Assembly: GCA_002723345.1 (NCBI GenBank) | Contig: PBNV01000004.1 | Coordinates: forward strand, 1,543-65,542 | DNA length: 64,000 nt | Direction: 5' to 3' | Origin: Rhodospirillaceae bacterium | Lineage (GTDB): Bacteria > Pseudomonadota > Alphaproteobacteria > Rhodospirillales > UBA2165 | Part shown: piece by piece, positions 34,283 through 37,181 of the stretch | Numbering within the stretch: the stretch's first letter is position 1 | Layout of the letters: each line of letters begins with the position of its first letter | Translations under genes and position numbers: made by a program | Notes under the pieces: model-generated | The model's input: the letters and a program-made list of their open reading frames with translations, nothing else | Told to the model about the DNA's origin: nothing | The model's database searches: none

Positions 34283-35305
34283 ATGGCAAGTAATCCGATC
34301 GACGGTTTTCAAGTGGACCATGCAGATATTAAATTTATCGGCAAGGATCTTCAGAGACCAGAATGTATCCTTGCCAAAAGCACCGGCGACCTCTGGGCGG
34401 CGGACGCCCGCGGCGGTGTTGTAAAAATCACCCCGGATGGGCGTCAAGACATAATCACTCAGCATTTTGGAGAGACATTCTCCCAGGCGCAAAATGCGGC
34501 CACCCAGTTCACCGAAGGGACGCTTCCCAATGGCCTAGCCTTTGCCAAAAATGGCAATATATACATCTCTAACTTCGGCACCGATGTGCTTGAGGTTATG
34601 GAACCGAACGGAAAAACCACCGTATTGTATGATGAAATTGATGGCGAACCCATCGGCAAAGTCAATTTTGTCCTACGCGATACGAAAGAACGGCTATGGC
34701 TGACCGTGTCGACTCGAATCAAGAATTGGATGGAGGCAATTAGTCCAAATGTCTCCGATGGCTTTATCGCGATGGCGGATGATAGGGGCCTCCGGATTAT
34801 GACGGACGGCCTGTCCTTCACCAATGAAATCCGCTTCGATGCCAACGAGGAATATCTGTATATCGTAGAGACTTGTGGCCAACGCATTTCCCGAATGAAA
34901 GTGGCCGAAGACGGCACGCTCTCCCAACGGGAAGTATTTGGTCCCACTCAACTGGGCAGCGGTGGTTTTCCTGACGGCATCGCTTTCGACTCCCATGGAA
35001 ACCTCTGGGGCACATTGGTTATGTCGGATCAGATCTTCGCCATCACGCCAGAGGGGGATTACCGGGTAATCTTGGACGACAGGGTCGCAGAAACAGAGCA
35101 AGCACTGGAAAAGGCCTTCCGGGCCGACGCGGTCACGCCAGACCACATGCTGGCGGCTGGCGGCACGATCGCTAATTGGTTCGCCAGTGTGACATTCGGG
35201 GGTCTCGATCTCAAAACGGTTTATATCGGAAGCTTGCGCGGCACACGTATTCCCTATTTCAAATCGCCCGTCGCTGGACTGCCAATGGCGCATTGGGCCG
35301 AATAA
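34283..35305 (+). CDS. SMP-30/gluconolactonase/LRE family beta-propeller
   Basis: LQRPECI, LPNGLAF, FTNEIRFD, FPDGIAFDSHGNLW, SVTFGG.DLKTVYIGSL. Confidence 0.88.
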   Translation: MASNPIDGFQVDHADIKFIGKDLQRPECILAKSTGDLWAADARGGVVKITPDGRQDIITQHFGETFSQAQNAATQFTEGTLPNGLAFAKNGNIYISNFGTDVLEVMEPNGKTTVLYDEIDGEPIGKVNFVLRDTKERLWLTVSTRIKNWMEAISPNVSDGFIAMADDRGLRIMTDGLSFTNEIRFDANEEYLYIVETCGQRISRMKVAEDGTLSQREVFGPTQLGSGGFPDGIAFDSHGNLWGTLVMSDQIFAITPEGDYRVILDDRVAETEQALEKAFRADAVTPDHMLAAGGTIANWFASVTFGGLDLKTVYIGSLRGTRIPYFKSPVAGLPMAHWAE

Positions 35306-35310
35306 TAGGT

Positions 35311-35844
35311 ATGGCCGACCCACTCTATCAGATGACAGCAGAGTATGTTAAGGTGCAGGACCGCATTGTCTTCCGGGTCAGCACGCGAAAACGGATTGAA
35401 TATAGAGTCTGGCTGACACGACGCTTGGTTAAGGGCCTCTGGGGGGTGGCCATTAAAGCCTTCGAATTGGAGCCCGAGGTCGCGCAACAGAGCCATCAGC
35501 CCAGCGTCAAAAAAGCCGTCATGTCCATGAGGCACCGGGAGGCTGTCCAGTCGGGAGATTTTTCCCGCAAGCATGATACCAAAACCGTCAAACCACCGCA
35601 GATTGAACAGAACCATCCTCTTCTTGCCATTAGGGCAGAAATTGGCCGCACGGATAAGGATACGATCCGGCTCACGTTTCATACCGCCGAACAAAAAAAA
35701 GTCAGTCTGAACTTAACCAGTGAGATGCTTCACGCCGTCTGTCATCTTCTACAGAAGGCGACAGATAGGGCCGGATGGGATTTAATGCTAAATGTTGGCG
35801 ATGCTGGTTCGATTGTTACCAGCAGTACGGAACAACTTCACTAA
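35311..35844 (+). CDS. hypothetical protein
   Basis: ATG 5 nt after the SMP-30 stop; YVKVQDRIVFRVST..EYRVWLTRRLVKGLW; 177 aa open frame. Confidence 0.75.
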   Translation: MADPLYQMTAEYVKVQDRIVFRVSTRKRIEYRVWLTRRLVKGLWGVAIKAFELEPEVAQQSHQPSVKKAVMSMRHREAVQSGDFSRKHDTKTVKPPQIEQNHPLLAIRAEIGRTDKDTIRLTFHTAEQKKVSLNLTSEMLHAVCHLLQKATDRAGWDLMLNVGDAGSIVTSSTEQLH

Positions 35845-35869: not shown

Positions 35870-35906
35870 AAAAAATAAAACCGCCGCCGGCAGATGCCAG
35901 CGGCGG
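35870..35906 (-). terminator. Rho-independent terminator after the selenoprotein gene
   Basis: Minus strand CCGCCGC-TGGCA-TC-TGCCG-GCGGCGG followed by TTTTATTTTTT, between convergent genes. Confidence 0.75.
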
Positions 35907-35931
35907 CTAACGCGATCTATCTCTTCGATCG

Positions 35932-36411
35932 CTACTTGTTTAGCGACTCGAGAAAGTTGATAACTTTAAGGACATCATCTGGGTTAACCCGTCCGAGCGG
36001 TCCCGAACTATAAGATGACATCATAACCGTGCCATCATCCTTCATCAGAAATTCGCTCGGCTGAATCATCTCTGGGTGCCTAGCATCTCCATACCAAGCT
36101 CCGATTTGCTCCGCCTGCTCCCGGGTCACCCCCTCGCCGACATCAAAAGAAACATCATTTGCCACCTCCCTTGCCTCGTCACCGGTATCCACACTGGCAG
36201 CAAAGACTTTTACACCCTTTTCTGCGAGCGCGTCCTTATGCTCTTCGAAAGCGACCAACTGCCGCCGACAATAAGGTCACCAATGCCCCCGATAGAACAA
36301 CACCACATTATATTTGCCATCCATATGATCGGGCAGATCGATAGAACCTCCCCCTGACACCTGAAGCGTCATGGACGGGAAAACACTGCCAGGACCCAGT
36401 TTTTCTGCCAT
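35932..36411 (-). CDS. peroxiredoxin-like (AhpC/TSA, thioredoxin fold) selenoprotein; Sec45 in UxxC
   Basis: RBS AAGGA, ATG 36411: MAEKLGPGSVFPSMTL...VVLFYRGHW[TGA 36279-36277]PYCRRQLVAFEEHK...KVFAASVD...; 159 aa; ORF track shows only the part after UGA. Confidence 0.88.
36234..36276 (-). promoter_or_regulatory. bacterial SECIS-like hairpin directly 3' of the UGA
   Basis: CCUUAU-UG-UCG-GCGGC-[AGUUG]-GUCGC-UUU-CGA-AGAG-CAUAAGG; apical loop 16 nt from UGA with GU at loop positions 2-3. Confidence 0.7.
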
Positions 36412-36628
36412 AATAGTTCCTTTTGATTTGAGGATTTAAGCGTTACCTGCAGCGCATTGCGGGTTTAACCTATTTAAACCAAATTCGAGCCCTTGGTTCA
36501 ATCGTCCCAAGACTTAAACTTACGGATATTTCAAGGCCAGGGCAAAACACCGAGGTATGATGCATATGTCAACGGCGATTTAAGTGCATTGTCCATTTGA
36601 GTGATTATTGCGCCGTCGAGGATCATAT

Positions 36629-36692: not shown

Positions 36693-37181
36693 TTAAGCGG
36701 CTTCCTTATCCTCAGCGCCCAAGAGTTTTTTTGCCGCACCGACAATGCCTGCCGCTGGCCCTTTGCTGATCTCAATCTGGCGGGGCTTCAGCGCCTCGGG
36801 CACTTCTCGCTTTAAATGAATGGTCAGCATGCCATTGTCCAAGCTGGCATTTGTCACTTTGACGTGATCGGCGAGATCAAAACGACGCTCAAAGGTACGG
36901 TTGGCAATCCCCTGGTGGAGATAGCTCACCGTTTCATCGTTAGTTGATCCCTTTCCTTTGACTAGAAGAAAGTTTTCCGACTGACTGATGTCTAAATCCG
37001 TCTCCGAAAAACCTGCTACTGCTATGCTGATTCGGTAAGCGTTATCATCGACGGACTCGATGTTATACGGCGGGTACGAGGGGCTTTGGCCCTGGCGTCG
37101 CGCCGTCGAGTCCAGCATTTTTTCAAGTCGTTCGAACCCAACGGAATATCTAAAAAGGGGTGAAAAATCGTAAGTACGCAT
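36693..37181 (-). CDS. ibpA: small heat-shock protein Hsp20 (IbpA-like)
   Basis: DFSPLFRYSVGFE, SYPPYNIE, YRISIAVAGF, YLHQGIANRTFERRFDLADH, NGMLTIHL.REVPEALKPRQIEI. Confidence 0.95.
   Translation of the reverse strand: MRTYDFSPLFRYSVGFERLEKMLDSTARRQGQSPSYPPYNIESVDDNAYRISIAVAGFSETDLDISQSENFLLVKGKGSTNDETVSYLHQGIANRTFERRFDLADHVKVTNASLDNGMLTIHLKREVPEALKPRQIEISKGPAAGIVGAAKKLLGAEDKEAA

Follow-up and report, generated by a model that had tools for sequence, protein, structure and literature searches.

An internal 'stop' codon in the gene of a small redox enzyme almost certainly encodes selenocysteine (Sec) in a marine alphaproteobacterium. The gene lies in a stretch of 64,000 nucleotides that was analysed as a whole and is referred to here as the window. 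We consider it highly probable that the gene is intact and that UGA at codon 45 is decoded as Sec by way of a downstream hairpin. The original prediction was that of a hidden UxxC selenoprotein with a SECIS element, in an organism that decodes Sec. In this study, this prediction was supported by the conservation of the TGA, by covariation in the hairpin, by selD, and by other Sec genes of the genome.

The gene and its flanking signals were located at the following positions of the window.

35932..36411, minus strand: predicted selenoprotein gene of 159 codons plus a TAG stop, with an AhpC/TSA (peroxiredoxin) fold and a U45-P-Y-C48 redox motif

36418..36422, minus strand: Shine-Dalgarno-like AAGGA with a 6-nt spacer to the ATG, as read from the sequence

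35879..35908, minus strand: intrinsic-terminator-like hairpin with a 13-bp stem, 10 G-C pairs and a T tail, 23 nt past the stop

Direct reading of the sequence placed the start codon ATG at 36411-36409 and the stop codon TAG at 35934-35932 on the minus strand. A ribosome-binding site and an ATG at 36411 had been predicted, and both were confirmed, the former as AAGGA at 36422-36418. The continuous thioredoxin-fold frame that had been described was also confirmed. Over 159 codons it is broken once only, by the TGA of codon 45 (36279-36277), and the surrounding motif reads FYRGHW-U-PYC. The Pfam family AhpC-TSA (PF00578) matched residues 8-130 across the TGA with an E value of 4e-19 and 69.2 bits against a cut-off of 26, and the Redoxin family also matched across it with an E value of 7e-12. 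No NCBIfam model claimed the protein, the best matches reaching 16-30 bits against cut-offs of 120-456. The gene had been said to have its own terminator, and a terminator-like site was indeed found at 35908-35879, between the gene and a convergent gene that ends at 35844. A weak promoter-like site is present upstream of the selenoprotein gene at 36631-36604.

The convergent gene (35176-35844, plus strand) shares this terminator region. It encodes a conserved protein of no Pfam family, and its true start is probably near 35311. Homologues of this protein, at 56-57% identity, adjoin the orthologue of the selenoprotein gene in three other loci (L023, L025 and L030). A gene for an Hsp20/alpha-crystallin protein is located directly upstream (36693-37181, minus strand). 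An Hsp20 homologue was found near the orthologue in at least seven other loci in varying orientation, and in L019, L020, L044 and L045 it was convergent. This proximity may reflect loose synteny or a stress-related neighbourhood.

The internal TGA might be a nonsense mutation in a Cys-type peroxiredoxin-like gene, followed by a hairpin that arose by chance. Such a pseudogene would agree with gene calling under table 11, which stops at codon 45 and yields fragments of 44 aa and 108 aa, the latter from TTG 36258. It would also agree with a single-sequence fold that is not significant, and with the failure to find selA, selB and selC in the organism's own assembly. We examined the codon in relatives of the gene.

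36277..36279, minus strand: UGA codon 45, read as Sec; TGA in all 44 distinct orthologous sequences

Orthologues at 46-99% identity were found in 14 of 41 related genomes, the gene's own included. Each of these 14 orthologues holds exactly one TGA, always at the same position in YRGHW-TGA-PYC. Some match occurred in 33 of the 41 genomes; the weaker matches, with identities of 34% or less, were other AhpC/TSA proteins, and several of these also hold one TGA. An even sample of the class, comprising 401 genomes, contained 17 genomes (own included) with an orthologue at E <= 1e-30, and three of the 17 are single-contig genomes. The orthologous GTDB loci, titled uncultured marine Rhodospirillaceae or Alphaproteobacteria MAGs, carried TGA in nine of nine cases. 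It had been stated beforehand that close relatives without TGA would speak against Sec. We found that the relatives do have TGA, in 14/14 of the related genomes, in 17/17 of the class sample, and in 11/11 of the metagenome loci covering the site.

The orthologous sequences with TGA reach down to 44-46% identity, and their identity range of 44-99% excludes one recent clonal sequence. Substitution rates were determined on both sides of the codon in nine pairwise comparisons. For the 44 codons before the TGA, pN was 0.16-0.35 and pS was 0.66-0.95, and for 55 codons after it pN was 0.14-0.33 and pS was 0.46-0.83. With pN so much lower than pS before and after the TGA, both parts are translated in frame. 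This purifying selection and the compensatory changes in the stem described below also argue against a pseudogene. In practice, the conservation of the TGA refutes this reading, to which we assign next to no probability.

A sequencing or assembly error at a codon that is truly TGC or TGT was also considered, as the source is a metagenome-assembled genome and the evidence is at contig level. However, one independent metagenome DNA contig (X5 record 12, 541 nt aligned) and two metatranscriptome contigs (X15 record 6 and X18 record 8) bridge codon 45 with no difference there, and TGA is found in every relative. The support from X5, X15 and X18 comes from assembled contigs, which indicate presence rather than expression level, and DNA carry-over is possible in the RNA libraries. 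The contigs of X2 and X18 left parts of the stretch uncovered. Reads with TGC or TGT had been named as evidence that would overturn the prediction; the independent DNA and RNA assemblies keep TGA. The chance of such an error is practically nil.

The marine DNA runs X2 and X5 also gave short contigs that match only 36257-36301 of the window and then diverge. This 45-nt core consists of HW-UGA-PYCRRQ and the first half of the SECIS. The short contigs are probably homologues of other organisms that have the most constrained stretch in common, and they give no evidence on this gene.

A Cys codon (TGT or TGC) was aligned with the TGA in four plasmid genes of cultured bacteria, namely Lichenihabitans, Agrobacterium, Deinococcus and Mycobacterium kansasii (37-40% identity), and in a chromosomal homologue (L034). 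The Cys homologues have the motif YRG(H/D/S)WCP(F/Y)C and are single proteins of 161-174 aa. The search output prints U as C, and the nearer homologues of the 'C' form are therefore uncertain as true Cys proteins. The database protein P0023, an apparent Cys form, was tried as a source of control DNA and rejected, because all 11 full-length metagenome loci retrieved had TGA, one of them at 81% identity; the 'C' of P0023 may be a printed U. The plasmid genes of cultured bacteria were used as Cys controls in its place.

The hairpin downstream of the UGA was analysed in the same set of orthologues.

36250..36266, minus strand: conserved SECIS core with a 6-bp stem (36266-36261 with 36255-36250) and the 5-nt loop AGUUG (36260-36256)

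36234..36276, minus strand: full 43-nt hairpin as first drawn, with the lower stem CCUUAU/AUAAGG

The core starts 10 nt past the UGA, its loop starts 16 nt past the UGA, and G is the second base of the loop. When the 48 nt that follow the UGA are folded, the 43-nt hairpin comes out as the structure of minimum energy, at -13.9 kcal/mol, to which the lower stem contributes in this sequence. In the top stem, 114 of 114 cells were paired over 19 sequences, and 258 of 264 cells (97.7%) were paired over the 44 distinct sequences, with compensatory changes in 32 cells. Changes on both sides were seen in four of the six stem pairs, and the covariation score was reached by none of 500 shuffles. When the stem was slid to other registers, 10-58% of cells were paired. 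The lower stem, which was paired in 47% of cells over the 19 sequences, is not conserved and is either lineage-specific or due to chance. These results uphold the top stem, the AGUUG loop, the 16-nt spacing and the second-position G of the hairpin that was originally drawn after the UGA, but not its lower stem.

A single-sequence fold of 66 nt including the UGA gave a different structure, with z = -0.99 and 31 of 200 shuffles folding as well. The fold that includes the UGA, with the UGA itself paired, showed no covariation (156 of 500 shuffles were as good) and was rejected. The five Cys-codon homologues pair at only one to three of the six stem positions. The loop has the consensus A-G-U-U-(G/A), and the codons concerned are CAG for Gln in 44 of 44 sequences and TTG or TTA for Leu in 42 of 44. 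At the position of this Leu codon, the Cys forms have CTC, CTG, ATG or GTG.

The pair 21-35 (alignment positions) was C-G in 30 sequences, G-C in 6, U-A in 5 and U-G in 2. Its 5' partner occupies the third position of the Arg49 codon, where the change is silent, and its 3' partner is the second base of codon 54. Residue 54 is Ala, Asp or Gly and varies together with the silent base of Arg49. Since the covariation spans a silent base and residue 54, the RNA pairing shapes the protein. The hairpin is thus a clean small example of an RNA structure that constrains a protein.

The bSECIS model, as described in PMC13188914, specifies a loop of 3-9 nt, an upper stem of 4-16 bp and G in the first two loop positions. 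The description further sets a distance of 16-37 nt from the UGA and an MFE of -7.5 kcal/mol or lower (PMC13188914). The present hairpin lies within all of these limits, with a 5-nt loop, a 6-bp stem, G then U in the loop, 16-nt spacing, and a local hairpin of -13.9 kcal/mol. By itself, the 17-nt core reaches -7.1 kcal/mol here, just short of -7.5, and it has -7.5 kcal/mol or lower in 36 of 44 relatives. A search of the whole window against Rfam at gathering thresholds gave no match. To our knowledge, Rfam has no bacterial SECIS family, and this null result is thus uninformative on the SECIS.

A second family of AhpC/TSA paralogues, about 215-230 aa long, has IYRGHW-U-PYCNAE and one in-frame TGA in relatives. 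It is represented by L036 (G004:C18), with similar matches in G008, G012, G016, G019, G023 and G027. The downstream hairpin of this family is in another register, with two of six pairs at the register of the present gene.

We next considered how database entries present the codon. In an alignment of 40 full-length database homologues, the Sec column holds C in 19 and W in 21. The W forms, and the failure to find selA, selB and selC in the own assembly, would agree with a UGA that is decoded without selenium, either by readthrough or by reassignment, a suppressor or near-cognate tRNA inserting Trp, Cys or Gly. However, the frame of L027 is matched at 96.5% identity by the W form P0041, that of L028 at 94% by the W form P0050, and both loci have TGA. 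The W in the database entries (P0002, P0019, P0027, P0041 and others) is thus probably the work of a caller that reads TGA as Trp. TGA is also an ordinary stop in the own genome, where it ends 391 of 1293 frames of at least 300 codons (30%), and the own assembly yielded no suppressor tRNA. Moreover, the hairpin fits a SelB-type model, selD itself contains a UGA, and the Pfam-supported in-frame TGAs of the genome lie at redox Cys positions. Taken together, these observations make readthrough without Sec very unlikely.

Many database clusters hold a 108-aa form that starts at the TTG in the SECIS loop; one of them, P0003, comprises 93 member sequences and shows 99% identity. These entries would suit a gene with two products, namely a leader peptide of 44 residues and a protein of 108 residues from TTG 36258. 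This TTG (36256-36258, minus strand) is a Leu codon inside the apical loop of the SECIS, and no Shine-Dalgarno sequence was seen before it. As the UUG of the loop is conserved, it provides a false start in the relatives that are called as 108 aa. The redox motif is missing from the 108-aa form, and so are the first three strands of the fold. The Cys homologues are undivided proteins. We give virtually no weight to a pair of products. The expectation that standard callers would truncate the gene was borne out by the many entries of this form.

The Sec machinery was searched for in the own assembly, which is 85.5% complete and consists of 64 contigs. The gene selD was found at G000:C37:28272-29201 (minus strand) with 416 bits against a cut-off of 125. 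It contains one in-frame TGA, in HGGG-U-GCK, at the known Sec/Cys site, and a hairpin with GUC as its loop comes after the UGA. Searches of this 85.5%-complete assembly with TIGR00474 and PF03841 did not find selA. Likewise, selB was not found there, as TIGR00475 matched general GTPase factors only, below the cut-off, and PF09107 matched nothing. The tRNA-Sec was not found in the assembly either: the best Rfam matches were tRNA-Ser, and ARAGORN reported none among 33 tRNAs. The 33 tRNA genes also include none for Ile, Trp or Tyr, and because these are missing too from the 85.5%-complete assembly, the missing tRNA-Sec is uninformative. A complete genome without selA, selB and selC had been named as counter-evidence to the prediction; the present failure to find them concerns an assembly that is 85.5% complete. 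In the 64-kb window, ARAGORN found no tRNA.

We then examined the machinery in relatives. In a genome of the same genus (G001), selA and selB are adjacent on a contig of 4,158 nt (L062). This contig gave no DNA match to the own genome, and it is without flanking genes and therefore uninformative on a synteny break. Over the 41 genomes, selA was above the cut-off in 23, selB in 22 and tRNA-Sec in 21. Among 13 relatives with the orthologue, selA was present in 11, and at least one of selA, selB and tRNA-Sec was present in 12; the exception is a genome that is 66% complete. In further near-complete genomes with the orthologue, selA was present in five of five.

Other Sec genes had also been predicted in the genome. 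A scan for in-frame TGA flanked on either side by coding signal yielded 245 candidates, of which 20 were sent to Pfam. A Pfam match was kept by 9 of the 20, and 8 of the matched stretches span the TGA. Nine candidates besides selD were thus found. They include a Redoxin-type peroxiredoxin gene with FTPT-U-T, two deiodinase-like genes with GSYT-U-PPF, four AhpD-like (CMD) genes with CxxU, and a GRDB/PrdB-like gene with V-U-PQC, in which the Pfam stretch ends four residues before the U. The Pfam-supported in-frame TGAs fall on redox Cys positions of the types UxxC, CxxU and TxxU. Candidate Sec genes were placed as follows.

G000:C57:28824-29306, minus strand: candidate Sec gene

G000:C63:55996-56658, minus strand: candidate Sec gene

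G000:C46:1617-2282, minus strand: candidate Sec gene

G000:C14:9413-10060, plus strand: candidate Sec gene

G000:C15:69645-70304, minus strand: candidate Sec gene

G000:C10:8028-9248, minus strand: candidate Sec gene

G000:C42:26685-27812, minus strand: candidate Sec gene

G000:C15:68339-69568, minus strand: candidate Sec gene

The GRDB-like gene and one AhpD-like gene are neighbours on C15. Five further candidates were dropped as adjacent genes or mis-extended starts (LolE/LolD-like, SurE/PCMT, DctQ/DctM, GAPDH and CoxL-like), and six were dropped with no Pfam match. Together with selD and the present gene, the genome appears from its sequence to have about eleven candidate selenoprotein genes. 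The families of all eleven appear in the table of the GOS survey (PMC2398784). A set of about eleven Sec genes is useful for estimating the selenium demand of pelagic bacteria. An organism without selA, selB and selC that keeps at least eleven conserved UGA redox genes, selD among them, and in which undescribed machinery inserts Sec or another residue at SECIS-marked UGAs, is in our judgement exceedingly unlikely.

The fold and the active site of the protein were analysed with the AF2 model and with alignments.

36268..36270, minus strand: Cys48, TGT codon, predicted partner (resolving) Cys of the UxxC motif, aligned with the peroxidatic Cys of peroxiredoxins

The model has a pLDDT of 92.8 and a pTM of 0.89, and its helix 46-57 begins right after U45. 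In Foldseek, every listed match at ranks 1-50 was a peroxiredoxin, the best with TM scores of 0.81-0.83 and E values of about 1e-12. Cys48 is invariant in 41 of 41 aligned proteins, as is Arg41, and P118 (in Q-P-S-E-F) is found in 39 of 41 family members. In the alignments with 2cx3 and 6q5v, the Pro of the peroxiredoxins corresponds to R41, the T/S to U45 and the catalytic Arg to P118, and only C48 is kept. The canonical signature of Pxxx(T/S)xxC plus Arg is thus absent, with three of the four catalytic residues being different. Judged by these residues, the term 'peroxiredoxin-like' fits the fold and not the chemistry. The original use of this term therefore holds for the fold, which both Foldseek and Pfam support, but not for the catalytic residues. 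P118 sits where, we presume, the cis-Pro of the thioredoxin fold would be; the ResA alignment ends at residue 97. Peroxiredoxins evolved from CxxC ancestors. As predicted from the alignments and the model, the protein is a peroxiredoxin-fold protein with a thioredoxin-type UxxC centre. Only seven residues precede the Pfam domain, which starts at residue 8, and the sequence reads without an N-terminal extension. The start of the domain at residue 8 implies that there is no export signal.

From these data, we propose that one intact gene would give a cytoplasmic, 159-residue redox protein of the peroxiredoxin fold, with UGA codon 45 decoded as Sec. As the ribosome nears the UGA, the downstream mRNA would fold into a 17-nt stem-loop of 6 bp with the loop AGUUG. 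By analogy with the E. coli system, SelB carrying Sec-tRNA(Sec) would bind this hairpin and deliver Sec in place of termination. Sec45, placed where helix 46-57 begins and three residues ahead of Cys48, would belong to a U-x-x-C centre of the thioredoxin/ResA type. As the attacking nucleophile, it would become linked to Cys48 in a selenenylsulfide, and a cellular thiol reductant would then reduce this bond again. The enzyme would most likely carry out thiol-disulfide (or peroxide/sulfenate) reduction through a UxxC cycle rather than by the mechanism of canonical peroxiredoxins. Conceivably, the family consists of selenol-based reductases of disulfides or sulfenates that are built on a peroxiredoxin scaffold and are wholly without peroxidase chemistry. 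The reading as Sec is directly supported by the frame, the fold, the UGA conservation, the Cys codons, the hairpin covariation, the presence in RNA libraries, and selD with the Sec genes; SelB binding, selenium incorporation, the substrate and the reductant are the parts that we infer.

The value of this result is a correction of annotation. In the protein collection searched, the entries for this gene and for many relatives either are 108-aa fragments that lack the active site or show Trp in place of Sec. With these public fragment and Trp entries, the redox and selenium inventories of these marine alphaproteobacteria would be understated. The knowledge of selenoproteins is unchanged by the present gene.

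Canonical peroxiredoxins of the BCP/PrxQ and Prx6 types (3hjp, 2cx3, 6q5v and 5ovq) resemble the protein in fold, as the TM scores above indicate, and in Cys48, which is at the position of the peroxidatic Cys. They differ in that Arg41, Sec45 and Pro118 here replace Pro, Thr/Ser and the catalytic Arg, and the identity is only 15-22%. Proteins of the ResA/TlpA type (3c71 and 4nmu) are similar in another respect. The WCPHC of ResA aligns with WUPYC, with U45 in the place of the N-terminal nucleophilic Cys, and in both cases the CxxC-type motif is at the start of the first long helix, which here is helix 46-57 directly after U45. However, the similarity to this type is weaker (E 1e-4, compared with 6e-7 for BCP), and peroxiredoxins rank first in the fold search. 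ResA/TlpA proteins carry an export signal or a membrane anchor, whereas the seven residues before the domain leave no room for either here.

The hairpin resembles the SECIS of the E. coli fdhF type and the bSECIS model as outlined in PMC13188914, in that a stem-loop within the coding sequence follows the UGA and has a small loop with G then U. Its spacing of 16 nt is at the lower limit of the 16-37 nt given there (PMC13188914). Unlike in the fdhF-type SECIS, no conserved bulge or lower helix was seen here, and SelB is the putative binding partner.

The original prediction held that the class is not new, and this agrees with the listings of Prx-like selenoproteins in PMC2398784, PMC9312934 and PMC13188914. 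Table 2 of the GOS survey has an entry 'Prx-like 1' with pfam00578 and UxxC, comprising 225 selenoproteins in 37 samples and 2,740 Cys homologues (PMC2398784). The reviews place a 'Prx-like thiol:disulfide oxidoreductase' with PF00578 and UxxC/UxxU among the 'predicted' selenoproteins in their lists (PMC9312934, PMC13188914), and the Sargasso Sea paper sets out the same approach, together with a conserved guanosine in the loop (PMC1088965). We found no family-defining difference from Prx-like 1 in a match that rests on family descriptions rather than published sequence sets, the example in the reviews being from another lineage. The present gene shares with this family PF00578, Sec in UxxC, marine bacterial origin, a SECIS right after the UGA, and Cys homologues. 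These results indicate that the gene is a member of the known Prx-like 1 / Prx-like thiol:disulfide oxidoreductase family of selenoproteins (PF00578, UxxC).
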